Positions 1-52,892 of a stretch of DNA of 64,000 nucleotides are shown here, piece by piece. Below the pieces are notes generated by a model. That model had not been told where the DNA came from, made no database searches, and was given only the letters and a program-made list of their open reading frames with translations. Every line of letters starts with the position of its first letter. The stretch's first letter is position 1. Source of the DNA: Gammaproteobacteria bacterium (GTDB lineage: Bacteria; Pseudomonadota; Gammaproteobacteria; SZUA-152). The position numbers were made by a program, and so were the translations under genes. The stretch lies in the NCBI GenBank assembly GCA_050116575.1, contig JASFOJ010000001.1, forward strand, positions 43,811 through 107,810. The letters run 5' to 3'.

Positions 1-307
1 CATATTGGCGGCCAGACAGTGGTCAGGACTGTTAGAAAAATTGTTAATTTGCGATCATCATAAACTATAATAGCGTCTGGTTTTGTCAACAAAGAGACGC
101 CTGTTTTTTTACAATTTCACGTTATAAGGTTGGTCATATAAACACCTGCGACAGCTCCGTGAGCGATATTTAGTATTTCGCCGGTATATTATGTAGTCAT
201 AAAAGCAACGTTGATGACTGCTATTATTCCCGCTGTCGAATACTTAAATAACAATAGTCGCAGGTTTGGAATTGCTTCGGCTTTATGCAAGGGACAAGGA
301 GCTATAT

Positions 308-1339
308 ATGAGGTTTGCTGACGGTAGCGGACGTCACCGGGTATGGCGGTATCTGGGCGCCCCACTGTTATTGGTCATTCCAGATATCTGTTATGCAGCA
401 ACAACGGAACTAAGCGGCCTGGTGGAAGCCGAAATGTCTGCGGGAAAAAATTTCCAAAACCAGAACGTTGGTGATATCAAATTGGCCACCGCCGCAGTGG
501 CGATAGATTCCGAGATCAACGAGTGGTATAGAGCTCATGTGTCGCTACTGTATGAGGAAGACCAAACCGACCTCGAAGTCGATGAAGGATTTATTCAGTC
601 CGGCAATTCCTTTTTGGGCGCGTTTTTCTTTAAGGCCGGCCAGTTTTACGTTCCGTTTGGCACATTCCAGTCCCACATGATTTCCGATCCGTTGACACTG
701 GCACTTGGCGAAACCCGCGAGTCCGCCGTGGTGGTAACCTACGACAATGGCTTTATCCTGTCGGGATACCTGTTTAACGGCGCATTGACCAAACCCGGCG
801 GAGAAAATAAAGTCGACAACTTCGGCGTATCCATCGGTTTCGTTTATCGTAGCGACGCCTGGATGCTCGATATCGGTGGCGGATACATCAACAACCTCGG
901 CGAGTCCGATACCCTGGACCAGGTCATTACCACCAATCTAGATGGCAATGAAGTTGATTATGTTCCGGGGTTCATGGGCTACCTGGCCCTGCAATGGGGT
1001 ACTTTCCAGATTATCGGCGAACTTATTGCTGCAGATGGCGAATTTAATACCGGCGAAGTGCAGACTTCCAAGAGGAGCAAACCCAGCGCCACCAACGTGG
1101 AACTCGGTTATACGTTCTCCAGCGGATTGAATATCGCTGTGGGGTTTCAAAACACGGTGGATCTTGCCGGCTTGAACGGCTTTCCCGAATCACGGGCGTT
1201 ACTGGGATTATCCTACCGAATTAACCAGGGAACCACCGTTGCCTTTGAGTACGCCAGCGATTCGGATTATTCGCAGGCCGACGGCGGCAGTGGTAACTCG
1301 GCATCCACGGCTACTTTGCAACTGGCCACGGTGTTCTAG
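308..1339 (+). CDS. putative outer-membrane beta-barrel porin
   Basis: ORF 266-1339. The internal ATG at 308 is preceded by AAGGAG. It has a basic n-region plus the hydrophobic LLLVIPDICYA signal, alternating Gly/Tyr-rich amphipathic segments, and the terminal ...LATVF (C-terminal Phe) typical of OMP barrels. Confidence 0.5.
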   Translation: MRFADGSGRHRVWRYLGAPLLLVIPDICYAATTELSGLVEAEMSAGKNFQNQNVGDIKLATAAVAIDSEINEWYRAHVSLLYEEDQTDLEVDEGFIQSGNSFLGAFFFKAGQFYVPFGTFQSHMISDPLTLALGETRESAVVVTYDNGFILSGYLFNGALTKPGGENKVDNFGVSIGFVYRSDAWMLDIGGGYINNLGESDTLDQVITTNLDGNEVDYVPGFMGYLALQWGTFQIIGELIAADGEFNTGEVQTSKRSKPSATNVELGYTFSSGLNIAVGFQNTVDLAGLNGFPESRALLGLSYRINQGTTVAFEYASDSDYSQADGGSGNSASTATLQLATVF

Positions 1340-49075: not shown

Positions 49076-49951
49076 TCACTTGTGTTGCCAGGTAAGATGA
49101 ATCCCGGTGCGTTCCAGATTATGCAGCACACCGGACAACTGGTGGCGCACGAACTGTAACCGATGCGGATTTTTACGCGCCAGGCTTGCCCAACTACGGC
49201 CCGGCACCAGGCCGGCAAAATCATATAACCCGGGTTCGGGAAAATAAAACGCTGCCACGAACTCGTTGAGCATACGTTGCATAATAAAACGCAGCACAAA
49301 TGTCTTGGCGGGCGACATCTCATTTACACCGGCTTTTACCATACGCCGGGAAAAGGAAATATGCTGCGCTTCATCAACGGTATGAAACGTGGCCACGTCA
49401 AAAATGGCGGGACACACCATGTTGTTGTGTTGCCGTATCAGCCGGTTTATCCGGTCCGGTATCTCCTGCCCCAACAACACCGTTAACCAGAACGCCGCCG
49501 AATCCATGGAGGTATTGCGCGAGAACCAGTTAAACCAGCGCAACTCATGGAACCGGGTGGCCACGCGTGGCAAGCCACTGCGCTGCACAATTTCGGTAAA
49601 CACCAGACTGTGGCCGGCTTCTTCACGCAATTCGTTTAAGTGATACTTCAGTAGCGCGATATTGCGCCGTGCATACAAAGCAGCCCGCGACAACCGCTCC
49701 ATTAACAACCCTTCCAGCCAGATATTGGCTTCCATCATGTGCAGATATTCAAACTGGGACAGTGCCTTGCGCTGCTCCGCCGGCAGCACCATAAACTCCG
49801 ACACGCCGTACAAGGACAGCGCCTCCTCTGGCAACCAGAAGTCATCCAGGTTCAGACGTAACCAGTTCACCCGTTTTACGGGATCCTGGTAAATACGATG
49901 CTGGGTCAGCTGGTCAAGTAACTCGGCTGATTTGGCGGACGTCAAACTCAT
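49076..49951 (-). CDS. AurF-like diiron-carboxylate oxygenase family protein
   Basis: Two E...(D/E)ExxH motifs: MMEANIWLE...LNELREEAGH and WLTVLLGQE...DEAQH. About 290 aa, helical. Confidence 0.55.
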   Translation of the reverse strand: MSLTSAKSAELLDQLTQHRIYQDPVKRVNWLRLNLDDFWLPEEALSLYGVSEFMVLPAEQRKALSQFEYLHMMEANIWLEGLLMERLSRAALYARRNIALLKYHLNELREEAGHSLVFTEIVQRSGLPRVATRFHELRWFNWFSRNTSMDSAAFWLTVLLGQEIPDRINRLIRQHNNMVCPAIFDVATFHTVDEAQHISFSRRMVKAGVNEMSPAKTFVLRFIMQRMLNEFVAAFYFPEPGLYDFAGLVPGRSWASLARKNPHRLQFVRHQLSGVLHNLERTGIHLTWQHK

Positions 49952-50163
49952 GAAACACTCGCGAATTAAATTGCAACTTACTGATAATACTACAATAATT
50001 ACTTAAAACGACCTTGTTCGATCGAGCTAATCATATTAGCAAACCCGGTTATCGATTGCACCTGCCGCCAAACTGGTTTAACCTTTCGCGTCTTTCGTCA
50101 CAGGCAATACGGAAATCGCTAATTAGCGGTTACAAAACAAATTTTGCGGCGAATGAGTCTAAT

Positions 50164-50511
50164 GGAGAGGTGGTCGCTACCGACATCCCTGTCTTCCGCG
50201 ACACTTGCACGTCCGTGTGCATTGTCCGAGTGGTTGAAGGAGCACGCCTGGACGATGTGCAGGAAGCACAAGTGCCGCGGGAGGCAGGAAGCCGAGAGCG
50301 GCAAGTGTGTAACACTTTTCAGGCCGTCAATCAGCCTTAAGAGTCAGATTACAAACAAAAATTGGAGAGGTGTCCGAGTGGTTGAAGGAGCACGCCTGGA
50401 CGATGTGCAGGAAGCACAAGTGCCGCGGGAGGCAGGAAGCCGAGAGCGGCAAGTGTGTAACACTTTTCAGGCCATCAATCAGCCTTAAGAGTCAGATTAC
50501 AAACAAAAATT
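50164..50511 (+). repeat. two tandem degenerate tRNA-Ser-derived units (200 bp and 148 bp) directly upstream of the intact tRNA-Ser
   Basis: Each unit starts with GGAGAGGTG...TCCGAGTGGTTGAAGGAGCACGCCTGGA (the tRNA-Ser 5' half). It then carries a ~50-nt insertion in the anticodon loop, lacks the T-arm and 3' acceptor strand, and ends with a shared 40-bp spacer. Unit 1 carries an extra ~50-nt insertion in the D-arm. Confidence 0.7.
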
Positions 50512-50602
50512 GGAGAGGTGTCCGAGTGGTTGAAGGAGCACGCCTGGAAAGTGTGTATACGTTTATAGCGTATCGAGGGTTCGAATCCCTCCCTCTCCGC
50601 CA
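50512..50602 (+). tRNA. tRNA-Ser (anticodon GGA), CCA encoded
   Basis: GGAGAGG acceptor pairs with CCTCTCC. D-arm TCCGAGTGGTTGAAGGA, anticodon loop CTGGAAA, long variable arm, T-arm GAGGGTTCGAATCCCTC, then GCCA. Confidence 0.85.
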
Positions 50603-50604
50603 TA

Positions 50605-50645
50605 TATTTCGTAAAACCATCCGTCTTTTTGGATGGTTTTACGAA
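50605..50645 (+). terminator. perfect 16-bp inverted repeat immediately after the tRNA
   Basis: TTTCGTAAAACCATCC gtcttttt GGATGGTTTTACGAAA. Confidence 0.5.
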
Positions 50646-50650
50646 ATATC

Positions 50651-50780
50651 AGGAGTGAGTGGATTTGAACCCAAGAAGAGGGTTCGACAAATCGGCAGGA
50701 TAGCCGATTTGGTCGTCACGCAGTGACGCCCGCAGGGCGAGGGTCCATGGATGGACCCGAGACAATCCTCCCTCTCCGCC
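50651..50780 (+). pseudogene. third tRNA-Ser-like remnant with a ~77-nt insertion in the T-loop
   Basis: GGAGTGAGTGGATTTGAA...GAGGGTTCGA | 77-nt insert of three consecutive hairpins | AATCCTCCCTCTCCGCCACATATTTGG. This duplicates the tRNA 3' end and downstream bases (a direct repeat of 50583-50625). Confidence 0.45.
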
Positions 50781-50819
50781 ACATATTTGGCAAAACCCAT
50801 TAGTAATCAAAGGTTCAAT

Positions 50820-50935
50820 GGTGCCTCATATCGGTTCCCTCGCAACGAGAAACTGTGAACCCCGTCAGGCCCGGAAGGGAGCAGCGGCAGCAGTGGCTTC
50901 GTGTGCCGGGGTGTGGCTGGTATGAGTCACCACCC
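50820..50935 (+). ncRNA. ffs: signal recognition particle 4.5S RNA
   Basis: GGTTCCCTCGCAACG...GTCAGGCCCGGAAGGGAGCAGC...GTGTGCCGGGGTGTGGCTGG aligns nearly base-for-base with domain IV of E. coli 4.5S RNA. The ends are complementary (GGTGCCTCATATC / GGTATGAGTCACC). Confidence 0.75.
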
Positions 50936-51044: not shown

Positions 51045-52892
51045 ATGAGTTACCAGGTTCTGGCACGAAAATGGCGCCCACGCACCTTCAGTGAATTGGT
51101 GGGCCAGGAGCATGTGCAGCGCGCCCTGATCAACGCGCTGGACAGCGAACGCCTGCACCATGCATTTTTATTCACCGGCACCCGGGGCGTCGGTAAAACC
51201 ACCATAGCGCGTATCCTCGCCAAATCCCTGAATTGCGAAAAAGGCGTCAGCGCCAGTCCCTGCGGCGAATGCAGCGCATGCACCGAAATCAATGAAGGCC
51301 GGTTCGTGGATCTGATCGAAGTGGACGCTGCCTCCAAAACCAAAGTGGAAGATACTCGCGAGCTGCTGGAAAACGTACAGTACGCGCCGACACGGGGCCG
51401 CTACAAGGTATACCTCATTGACGAGGTGCACATGCTGTCCACCCATAGCTTTAACGCATTGCTCAAGACCCTTGAAGAACCCCCGCCCCACGTCAAGTTC
51501 CTGCTGGCGACCACCGATCCGCAAAAGCTGCCGGTCACGATCCTGTCGCGTTGTATTCAGTTCAACCTGAAGCGGTTACCGGCGGATTTGATTCGCGGAT
51601 ACCTGGAAAAAATTCTCGGCGCCGAAAACATCGCCGCCGAAACCACTGCCCTGGCGTTAATCGCGGACGCCGCCGACGGCAGTATGCGCGATGGCTTAAG
51701 CTTGCTAGACCAGGCCATCGCCTATGGCGGCGGCGAAGTCAAGGAAGCGGACGTGCGCGCCATGCTCGGGTCCGTGGACAAACAATACGTGTATGACCTG
51801 ATGCAGGCATTGGCGGATCGCGATTCCACGGCATTACTAACCGGTATTGAACAGCTGGCCAGCCATGCGGCGGATTTTACCAATGTACTAAACGAAGTGC
51901 TCAGCGTACTGCACCGCGTCGCGCTCAGCCAACTGGCCCCCGGCGCCATTGATGACCAGTTGCCGGAAAAACCCCGGCTGGACCAACTGGCCCAAACCCT
52001 GACACCGGAAGACACCCAGCTCTATTACCAGATTGGATTAATCAGTAAACGGGACTTGCCGCTGGCGCCCGATCCTAAACTGGGTTTTGAGATGGCCATG
52101 TTGCGCATGTTGAGGTTCCGGCCCGATACTGGCGTGGCAAATCCGACCGCAGCGGGACAAAGTGCCGGTCACGCGGCCTCGTCGGCACCGACCACATCGG
52201 CAACGCCATCGTCCTCTGGCGCAGCACCAACACCAACGCCATCCGCGCCCGCCCAGCAAACCAAAGCACATCACCTGCAAGCCATCAGTAAAACGCTGGG
52301 GACCGCGACCACTAAAAAAAAACTGAACAATAAGGACCACCGGGCTCAAACCGCAGCACCGGCACAAAGCACCAACCCGGCATCAACGACACAGATTAAC
52401 AACGTACCGGCAAAGAAAGCGCCGACGAGTACCAACAAAGATGCACCCGCGGCACCGGCCGCCGAAACCACCCGGGCGGCACCCGTTACCGGCCCGCTGC
52501 CACTGCCCACTGACCACTCGACGTGGGAATCATTGGTGGAACGGCTGCCGGTCAGTGGCGTCCCGCTGCAGCTGGCCCGCAATTGCTCATTCGCCTGTTG
52601 CGGCGACGGGCATCTGGAATTACAGTTATTCGAAGGTCATCAGCAGTTTTTCAGCAAACAACGCCAGGAGATCCTGGCAAACGCTATTGGCGAGGCAACG
52701 GGCAAGGACATTAAACTTTCCATCGACATATCAGTCGAAGCGGGAGAAACCCCCGCCGGCCGGCAACAACAGCGCAACAGAGATCGCCAACAGTCGGCAG
52801 AACAATCGATTTATAATGATGCGATTGTCAAATCCATCATTGAAACTTTCGAGGGCCGAATTCCCCCAAAATCGATTCAGCCTATCGATTGA
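51045..52892 (+). CDS. dnaX: DNA polymerase III subunits tau/gamma
   Basis: MSYQVLARKWRPRTFSELVGQEHV... AAA+ clamp-loader motifs, a Pro/Ala-rich linker and a tau C-terminal domain. The A9 run at 52314-52322 is a candidate -1 frameshift site. Confidence 0.9.
   Translation: MSYQVLARKWRPRTFSELVGQEHVQRALINALDSERLHHAFLFTGTRGVGKTTIARILAKSLNCEKGVSASPCGECSACTEINEGRFVDLIEVDAASKTKVEDTRELLENVQYAPTRGRYKVYLIDEVHMLSTHSFNALLKTLEEPPPHVKFLLATTDPQKLPVTILSRCIQFNLKRLPADLIRGYLEKILGAENIAAETTALALIADAADGSMRDGLSLLDQAIAYGGGEVKEADVRAMLGSVDKQYVYDLMQALADRDSTALLTGIEQLASHAADFTNVLNEVLSVLHRVALSQLAPGAIDDQLPEKPRLDQLAQTLTPEDTQLYYQIGLISKRDLPLAPDPKLGFEMAMLRMLRFRPDTGVANPTAAGQSAGHAASSAPTTSATPSSSGAAPTPTPSAPAQQTKAHHLQAISKTLGTATTKKKLNNKDHRAQTAAPAQSTNPASTTQINNVPAKKAPTSTNKDAPAAPAAETTRAAPVTGPLPLPTDHSTWESLVERLPVSGVPLQLARNCSFACCGDGHLELQLFEGHQQFFSKQRQEILANAIGEATGKDIKLSIDISVEAGETPAGRQQQRNRDRQQSAEQSIYNDAIVKSIIETFEGRIPPKSIQPID

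Follow-up and report, generated by a model that had tools for sequence, protein, structure and literature searches.

Small non-autonomous palindromic insertion elements and tRNA-linked repeats are both known kinds of sequence. Both bear on the locus described here, a tRNA-Ser(GGA) gene in a 64-kb stretch of gammaproteobacterial DNA (the window, meaning the whole stretch that was analysed). The gene is preceded by two partial tRNA-Ser copies (units 1 and 2), which are interrupted by a short hairpin element, hereafter the mini-element, and is followed by a further tRNA-like sequence (unit 4).

The nearest counterparts of the mini-element are the non-autonomous elements of IS200/IS605 (PATEs) and the REP/REPIN-RAYT elements, which are likewise small, non-coding and hairpin-based, with structure-constrained hairpins at both ends, and which insert in either orientation beside a short motif without target duplication. 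The mini-element differs from these in its low, non-dispersed copy number and its loosely kept motif, and neither a Y1/HUH transposase nor a RAYT was found in the window, where the Pfam scan took in 46 of the 56 open reading frames (ORFs), or near a copy in another genome (L012, see below). The distance from cleavage site to hairpin is also unlike that of IS608. Rickettsia palindromic elements (RPE) are short palindromes that occur in frame in protein genes, as well as in RNA genes, and are tolerated as extra peptide. The mini-element shares this behaviour, since in one phage gene (L107) it forms 17 codons absent from the homologues and in another (L106) it occupies 51 nt in frame; it differs from RPE in having no sequence relationship to them, in its hosts (gammaproteobacteria and phages), in its length (~51 nt versus ~100-150 nt) and in its self-nesting at GGA loops. 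With the small RNAs CsrB, RsmY and RsmZ it has in common short hairpins carrying GGA in penta- or hexaloops (GCAGGAAGC, GCAGGAUGC, GGCAGGACGCC), two per element about 20 nt apart. Unlike those RNAs, it falls far below the Rfam threshold, has no promoter or terminator of its own, and is found inverted and within ORFs.

The points of interruption, the anticodon loop and the T-loop, are those of integrase att sites in tRNAs and of group I or archaeal-type tRNA introns. The units are unlike att sites in that tRNA 5′ halves are duplicated and no recombinase was found among the ORFs scanned, and unlike introns in that the 50-nt insert has no intron model match in Rfam; moreover, no tRNA could be regained by splicing, the 3′ half being missing from the interrupted copies. 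Among tRNA-linked repeats, the RtT (tyrT) repeats of E. coli (RF00391; rttR) lie directly downstream of a tRNA gene, as does unit 4. Their function is still given as unknown in the recent literature (bioRxiv 10.1101/2024.07.17.603846), and an RtT small RNA has been annotated outside enterics, in Thioalkalivibrio (PMC8092127).

We could not match the 51-nt two-hairpin element to any described family, and literature searches for a published equivalent gave general mentions of RtT only. New here are its fixed ends, its GGA loops together with a GGA^ target, its self-nesting, its use of the anticodon loop and its in-frame phage copies.

The mini-element and its insertion sites

The anticodon-loop and D-arm inserts of units 1 and 2 are copies of one element of 50-53 nt, the D-arm copy lying in reverse orientation. 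All three copies score ~71 bits (E ~4e-14) with R1, a covariance model made from an alignment (A2) of 12 element copies of 50-53 nt put in one orientation. With filters off, R1 finds exactly these three copies in the 64 kb, everything else reaching <=9 bits. The initial annotation had recorded a second insertion in the D-arm of unit 1, and this is present (52 nt), but it is not a separate kind of insert, being the same element reversed.

The host sequences of these copies are as previously described. Four tRNA-Ser-like sequences, one of them an intact tRNA-Ser(GGA), with ffs and dnaX after them, are confirmed at the same coordinates; the intact gene is the only one in the array region according to both ARAGORN and Rfam, and Tandem Repeats Finder reports a 148-bp period present in 2.2 copies at 99% identity (score 645). 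Units 1 and 2 do have the sizes (200 and 148 bp), the exact tRNA 5′ part and the anticodon-loop insert ascribed to them. Each follows the tRNA as far as the anticodon GGA and continues with the 50-nt insert, AAGTGTGTA, ACACTTTTCAGGC and a common 39-nt A-rich spacer, while the variable arm, T-arm and acceptor 3′ strand are lacking. Their anticodon-loop inserts are identical (chance matches in shuffles, 0), one substitution separates the two units (99% over 148 bp), and unit 1 has the layout of unit 2 with an extra 52 nt between tRNA positions 9 and 10.

From 5′ to 3′ the conserved order of the element is CGAYG, a hairpin with the loop A(N)GGAN, RAGTGYCGC, an inner hairpin again with the loop A(N)GGAN, and AGCGRC, the first and last of these being fixed ends in A2. 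In the copy at 50253-50302 the two hairpins are GTGC-AGGAA-GCAC and GCCGC(GGGA GGC-AGGAA-GCC GAGA)GCGGC. GGA is invariant in both loops over the 12 copies and the adjoining loop bases vary; the element has 6.0 GGA per 100 nt, the window 1.3. Standard pairs make up 94.2% of the cells of A2, and in slid controls this falls to 20-47%. Two-sided changes occur in 20 cells versus 7.0 +/- 2.5 in shuffled alignments, and the covariation score is 0.366 versus 0.167 (0/500 shuffles reach the observed value in either case), with compensatory change in 5/13 pairs. Hairpins at both ends of the element are thus conserved with covariation.

Unit 1 folds as a long stable hairpin (-87 kcal/mol, z = -5.6) because its D-arm insert is an imperfect reverse complement of its anticodon-loop insert. 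The "antisense" units of some relatives (see below) consist of GGAGAGGTG, the reverse complement of the insert, and a degenerate remainder. A selected antisense:sense duplex was considered for unit 1 and rejected, G.U pairs (34) not being enriched over A.C mismatches (26) in seven antisense/sense pairs; the long hairpin merely results from the presence of two diverged, oppositely oriented copies.

Comparison of filled with empty sites reveals precise insertion, with neither duplication nor loss of target, at all four sites where an empty site is available. The anticodon-loop site lies between tRNA positions 36 and 37 (CCTGGA^AAGTG) and the D-arm site on the reverse strand of the D-stem, at tRNA positions 9/10 (CCACTCGGA^CACCTCTCC). 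A nested site, GCCCATGGA^TGGGC, lies within a different copy of the element, in its inner GGA loop; it is filled in unit a of L096 and unit A of L099, two of the relatives described below, and empty in unit c of L096. Over six sites the target ends in GA^ at four (GGA^ at three, AGA^ at one), the other two being L012 and L106. On the reading preferred here, the element favours insertion immediately 3′ of GGA. This would make the CUGGA^AA anticodon loop of tRNA-Ser(GGA) a natural landing site, and likewise the element's own loops, which would explain the nested copies. Compared to unit c of L096, unit A of L099 also has an extra 17-nt insertion, TTTATGCCCTTTGGGTA, within its outer, reverse-oriented copy (~288-304 of the extracted region, tRNA orientation).

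The earlier proposal to check whether the inserts are a mobile mini-element proved central; R1 finds copies in Thiodiazotropha and in two viral contigs. In a metagenome-assembled genome of Candidatus Thiodiazotropha the copy (L012, 1401-1452; 46 bits) is an intergenic hairpin with no tRNA in 9.6 kb. Within positions 1330-1500 of this contig it forms the tip of a bigger, imperfect hairpin (ACAGCGTGAGTGGCACGCTTGT ... ACAAGCGCACCCTTCACGCTGT), and downstream the element's own 5′ end is repeated in part and inverted, which recalls the antisense/sense arrangement of the tRNA locus. The viral copies, L106 (65.8 bits) and L107 (53.3 bits), came from degenerate pattern scans of ~2.9 million viral contigs, with matches confirmed by R1. 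In L107 the 51 nt lie in frame within a 259-aa ORF of a Mu-like phage and are translated through with no stop; precisely these 16-17 residues (L107 residues ~76-92) are missing from the homologues of Alteromonadaceae phage B23 and Chromohalobacter phage YPCBV-1. In L106 the element has the opposite orientation and again occupies 51 nt in frame, at codons 3-19 of an ORF that looks NlpC/P60-like from its sequence and that keeps its frame and an intact N-terminus when the 51 nt are removed. Presence in frame in phage genes argues that the element moves between genomes. We also considered phage T4 gene 60, which has a 50-nt bypass gap with GGA take-off and landing codons; the likeness is numerical only, since the phage copy is read through without a stop. 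One further match from the metagenome pattern scan (L086) lies in a coding region and was discarded as a chance match.

Arrays in related genomes

Relatives were gathered through homologues of the AurF-like neighbour of the array, which gave a graded series of uncultured gammaproteobacteria, one of them named Kaarinaea lacus by NCBI. The metagenome pattern scan added L085, a different organism with different flanking genes and without the AurF-like neighbour. A genome scan based on DnaX returned distant relatives only (45-56% identity), none with inserts, and exact-protein searches with DnaX and YbaB supplied no DNA of use near the array.

Arrays of differing composition are found at the same place in five relatives. 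One unit like unit 1 of the window is present in L110 (AurF-like identity 95%), whose contig ends inside this unit, and in L087/88/89/91 (88%). The order is antisense unit, sense unit, antisense unit and tRNA in L096/97/98 (78%), and antisense unit, sense unit and tRNA in L099/100 (75%). L085 has one sense unit upstream of tRNA-Ser(GGA), with an insert that differs from that of the window by two compensatory pairs. No unit lies upstream of tRNA-Ser in L092 (83%), L095 (80%), L093/94 (78%), L101 (71%) and L103 (62%). For L087/88/89/91, L096/97/98 and L099/100 the array is seen in 2-4 independent assemblies.

The mean pairwise identity of the sense units from five taxa is 0.87 in the element, 0.97 in the 22 nt that follow it and 0.58 in the spacer. 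The spacers have diverged and the units have not, which is in keeping with vertical inheritance of the array and not with a recent transfer of whole units. The tRNA 5′ part of the units is that of the tRNA of the same genome, namely GGTTGAAGG in the window and L087, GGCTGAAGG in L085 and GCGGTCGAAGG in L096 and L099, which points to duplication and homogenisation in place. The initial annotation had taken a shared array with compensatory conservation as the mark of a stable genomic feature, and such arrays are what the relatives carry; units 1 and 2 are stable but dynamic and are not a recent scar. Its suggestion of tandem duplication with decay holds for the duplication of units 1 and 2, but the identities just given and the compensatory changes lend no support to decay.

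In L103 two ~21-nt direct repeats (ACATAGGTTATGTAGAGT / ACATAAGGTTTGTAGAGC) lie just upstream of the unit-less tRNA-Ser, at ~296-345 of the extracted intergenic region, and a 230-nt spacer separates tRNA-Ser from ffs.

Origin of the array and a possible leader RNA

The locus is probably a tRNA-Ser(GGA) transcription unit that has been colonised by a small, trans-mobilised, non-autonomous hairpin element, its arrays being reshaped by recombination. A tandem duplication would have supplied an extra leader and tRNA 5′ part; the upstream copy would then have been hit in its anticodon loop and have lost its 3′ half, giving the sense unit, and a second element, in opposite orientation, may have entered the reverse strand of the D-stem to give unit 1. 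Unequal or homologous recombination between tRNA 5′ halves could thereafter have expanded the array, as in unit 2 here, or deleted it, as in the unit-less relatives. These 5′ halves are direct repeats of ~37-45 nt and provide a route for the loss and gain of units, which would explain the patchy distribution. Our guess is that an enzyme acting in trans on single-stranded DNA, of the HUH/IS200-IS605 type, would do the mobilising, although none was seen; the Pfam scan of 46 of the 56 window ORFs found no integrase, transposase or reverse transcriptase, housekeeping families only. If this reading is right, the mini-element is a compact and tractable structure-guided insertion element, the target logic of which is legible from its nested copies and the anticodon loop.

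Several observations weigh against colonisation by a mobile element. Neither a mobilising enzyme nor a transposase was found among the window ORFs scanned or beside the L012 copy. The copy number is low, with no further copies in the window, whereas a classic MITE, REP or PATE would be dispersed; the ~2.9 million viral contigs gave two matches only, and BLAST with unit 2 against plasmid and phage record collections matched the tRNA part alone, the element being absent. Target preference is loose, as the two sites L012 and L106 show. Tandem unit 2 comes from one assembly, and where the same strain or nearly identical ones were assembled from short reads, the contigs stop within the array. Finally, the 22 nt after the element lie outside it and yet are 0.97 identical in five taxa, and compensatory changes distinguish the reverse copies that are orthologous between the window, L110 and L087. 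Both of these hint at constraint in place, for which a purely selfish insertion gives no explanation, and conservation of the sense unit exceeds what one would expect of a dead insertion.

Such constraint would be expected if the units were a host-functional structured leader RNA, such as a CsrA/RsmA-type sponge, a decoy or an element for processing the tRNA-Ser precursor. We regard this as unlikely, though far from negligible; it is compatible with a mobile origin followed by exaptation, and we keep exaptation as a minority, non-exclusive alternative. It draws on a promoter-like block upstream of the units that is conserved in 11/11 related loci, including unit-less loci and L085. A block of ~70 nt (window 50020-50092: TTAGCAAACCCGGTTATCGATTGCAC, 12 nt, CTGGTTTAACCTT[T/G]CGCGTCTTT) is shared by the window with L085, L087, L092, L093, L095, L096, L099, L101, L103 and L110. 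Its sequence resembles a stringent-type promoter preceded by an upstream element, although the -10 (TAACCT) is weak, and we infer that it is the tRNA-Ser promoter; a simple sigma-70 consensus scan did not call it. As the units sit between this block and the tRNA, they are probably transcribed as a pre-tRNA leader, from which RNase P cleavage might release them.

The predicted fold of the sense unit is also in keeping with a leader RNA. RNAalifold gives a four-way junction with 98.6% of cells paired, the arms of which are P1 (GCCUGGA/UUCAGGC, with an invariant G.U pair), the two element hairpins and a hairpin AAGUGU-GUA-ACACUU; here AAGTGTGTA and ACACTTTTCAGGC together with GCCTGGA are predicted to close the junction around the element. 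The non-element arms are invariant in five taxa, their 22 nt standing at 0.97 identity against 0.58 for the spacers, and the GGA of each loop stays constant amid varying bases and is enriched as described above. However, the alignment of five sense units contains two compensatory pairs only, a number reached by 18/500 shuffles. In a permissive Rfam scan RsmY matched weakly at 50396-50489 (16.5 bits) and 50248-50341 (14.2 bits), far below its gathering score of 57; these and miRNA-like hairpin matches were the only ones, and units 1 and 2 were assigned to no known RNA family. GacA-box-like matches in the window are at chance (14 versus 16 +/- 3.8), the window has no csrA gene, and the terminator scan called no terminator for the units. 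The spacers at 50336-50353 and 50484-50501 hold CTTAAGAGTCAGATTACA, three mismatches from the GacA-box palindrome, such matches being at chance frequency. The five related lineages without units show that these are dispensable, and the element occurs in either orientation and in phage coding sequence, where the role of a sponge would be senseless.

A composite of the two readings is rather improbable. The module would be a new trans-mobilised element that recognises GGA in folded single strands and hence lands in the tRNA-Ser(GGA) anticodon loop and in its own loops. The sense unit, conserved after domestication, would serve as a leader RNA of cloverleaf-like shape bearing two GGA loops, for instance a CsrA/RsmA-type sponge or a tRNA-like decoy co-transcribed with tRNA-Ser. 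Were the sense unit functional, a tRNA fragment plus a selfish insert would have been recruited as a regulatory RNA.

That unit 2 is an artefact of metagenome assembly, strain variants having been collapsed or expanded at a locus that truly has one unit, as in L087, we consider very unlikely. Units 1 and 2 are nearly identical and short-read contigs end inside the array, as such an artefact would produce, but one substitution distinguishes the units, and multi-unit arrays are identical in the independent assemblies of L096/97/98 and L099/100. The matter touches copy number only and not the nature of the element. Arrays of this kind break short-read assemblies and can confuse tRNA annotation.

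We give even less credence to a local origin of the inserts, without a mobile element, by template switching at GGA/TCC microhomology and snap-back replication among palindromes. The junctions do lie at such microhomology (for instance, GTCC is common to the D-stem and the insert end), the locus is rich in inverted repeats, and the inverted anticodon copy of 13 nt resembles what snap-back would produce. Yet the same two ends recur in three local targets and in unrelated genomes and phage genes that have no tRNA-Ser sequence, the copies differ by compensatory substitutions and not by random decay, and the in-frame phage copy with its empty-site homologues largely refutes this origin.

Scars of the attL/attR type, left by tRNA-targeting integrative elements since almost wholly deleted, are hardly credible: the anticodon loop and T-loop insertion points coincide with what Williams reportedly named in 2002 as classical crossover sublocations of tRNA-targeting tyrosine integrases, and unit 4 holds a second copy of the tRNA 3′ end with 16 further nt, but units 1 and 2 duplicate the 5′ half (only unit 4 has a 3′ part), the inserts are a conserved, covarying 51-nt module with fixed ends that is also present at non-tRNA sites, the T-loop insert has a layout common with E. 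coli RtT, and no integrase was found in the 46 of 56 window ORFs scanned. The serial integration and excision scars proposed earlier are, in the tyrosine-integrase sense, likewise unsupported, while the remark that the array is not a simple integrase 3′-end duplication and has no integrase nearby stands, no recombinase being present in the ORFs scanned.

The downstream hairpin and unit 4

The two copies of a 31-nt direct repeat (Table 1) flank a 179-bp block behind the intact tRNA, which consists of a hairpin and unit 4. The stem of the hairpin is a perfect 19 bp, and not 16 bp as first reported. Its inner part is CCATCC-loop-GGATGG followed by TTTT, and the segment 50604-50649 looks like a bidirectional intrinsic terminator, which the terminator scan did not call. 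The 179-bp block is absent from the sister lineage L087, where ffs comes directly after the tRNA, and unit 4, present in a single copy, is absent in all relatives examined.

In unit 4 the T-arm is split after GGTTCGA (GAGGGTTCGA, 77 nt, ATCCTCCCTCTCCGCCA). The 77-nt T-loop insert and the retained 3′ end had been recognised before; the insert folds into four hairpins instead of three, and the 5′ part, formerly assigned to the acceptor and D region, can be aligned with similar success to the T-arm and acceptor 3′ strand in inverted form (18/23 aligned positions, versus 16 matches with 9 gaps to the tRNA 5′ acceptor/D region). We prefer the inverted reading because the homologous part of E. coli RtT is 19/22 identical to the inverted T-arm. 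The unit 4 fold has z = -5.0, and its minimum free energy structure pairs the inverted copy with the T-arm/acceptor segments.

The tyrT locus of E. coli (L084; NC_000913 1286000-1288200) was used for comparison. There too an inverted T-arm copy comes first and pairs with the T-arm, the T-arm, acceptor 3′ strand and CCA of the host tRNA are split after GGTTCGA (AAGGTTCGA, a 67-nt multi-hairpin insert, AATCCTTCCCCCACCACCA), and AATCC, the T-stem 3′ strand, the acceptor 3′ strand and CCA close the unit. The repeat spacing is 178 bp at tyrT versus 179 bp here, and GCCCG[C/A]AGGG[C/T]GAGG and a hairpin CGTYRC...GYRACG stand at the same relative positions in both. The host tRNA is Tyr in E. coli and Ser here. 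RtT copy number is variable in E. coli, the insert occupying 1-9 places per genome (median 2), whereas unit 4 is single; ~700 of 5426 complete genomes have no match and 18 places are on plasmids.

Rfam RtT aligns to unit 4 over its full model (1-130) with 19.8 bits, the gathering score of 45 not being reached; E is 0.44 when 951 nt are searched and 0.11 when 231 nt are, and the E. coli copies score 133-138 bits. Similarity of the inserts alone is marginal (score 20 versus 14 +/- 2.4, reached by 24-41/1000 shuffles, with one common 15-nt block). With this and the sub-threshold score, unit 4 is called RtT-like in architecture only. The 179-bp block is best explained as a separate acquisition that is distantly related, in its architecture at any rate, to the RtT repeat of E. 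coli tyrT. A tmRNA, permuted tmRNA or other tRNA-like gene was rejected for unit 4 (none by ARAGORN; tmRNA_permuted 11.5 bits).

RtT is laid out as found here, with a tRNA arm whose loop is interrupted by a hairpin module and with an inverted copy of that arm, and if the mini-element reading is right the locus may serve as a model for how tRNA operons gain arrays of partial tRNAs, for instance the 45-year-old tyrT/RtT puzzle of E. coli. Each end of the 77-nt insert is formed by a hairpin, GGC-AGGATA-GCC and GTCC-ATGGAT-GGAC, whose loop contains or adjoins a GGA, and R1 has a weak partial match in it (50742-50757, 8.9 bits). The T-loop insert and the mini-element families are possibly related.

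Table 1. Features of the tRNA-Ser(GGA) locus and its surroundings in the window.
Feature	Position	Strand	Length	Details and basis
AurF-like diiron oxygenase gene	49076-49951	minus		Divergently transcribed neighbour of the array
Putative tRNA-Ser promoter	50056-50092	+		TTGCAC 50056-50061, 17-nt spacer, TAACCT 50079-50084, GC-rich discriminator TTCGCGTC
tRNA-Ser array region	50164-50790			Between divergent AurF-like gene and ffs-dnaX-ybaB-recR
Unit 1 (antisense/sense fusion)	50164-50363	+	200 nt	In order: acceptor 5′ strand; reverse element; D-arm + anticodon 5′ strand; forward element; anticodon 3′ strand; inverted anticodon-arm copy; spacer
Mini-element copy, unit 1 D-arm	50173-50224	minus	52 nt	R1 71.0 bits, E 4.3e-14
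Mini-element copy, unit 1 anticodon loop	50253-50302	+	50 nt	R1 71.2 bits
Anticodon-stem 3′ strand AAGTGTGTA, then inverted anticodon-arm copy ACACTTTTCAGGC	50303-50324	+		Inverted-repeat search
Unit 2 (sense unit)	50364-50511	+	148 nt	Exact tRNA 5′ part 50364-50400; element 50401-50450; post-element hairpin segment 50451-50472; spacer 50473-50511
Mini-element copy, unit 2	50401-50450	+	50 nt	R1 71.2 bits; identical to 50253-50302
Intact tRNA-Ser(GGA)	50512-50602	+		ARAGORN; Rfam tRNA model 55.5 bits
31-nt direct repeat, left copy	50588-50618	+	31 nt	tRNA 3′ end + 16 nt downstream
Perfect 19-bp inverted repeat	50604-50649	unstranded		Inverted-repeat search
Unit 4 (RtT-like unit)	50650-50781	+		Rfam RtT full-model alignment, 19.8 bits; inverted T-arm/acceptor copy 50652-50673; T-stem 5′ strand with GGTTCGA 50678-50687; 77-nt insert 50688-50764; ATCC + T-stem 3′ strand + acceptor 3′ strand + CCA 50765-50781
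31-nt direct repeat, right copy	50767-50797		31 nt	179-bp spacing from left copy
ffs (small signal recognition particle RNA)	50829-50925	+		Rfam 76.1 bits
dnaX	51045-52892			Downstream of ffs

A different downstream region is seen in L085. At positions 1-470 (minus-strand reading), beyond the tRNA-Ser terminator, several TTGCGGAGA repeats precede what looks from its sequence like the N-terminus of a Fic-family gene. An island that integrated at the 3′ end of the tRNA may have its boundary here.

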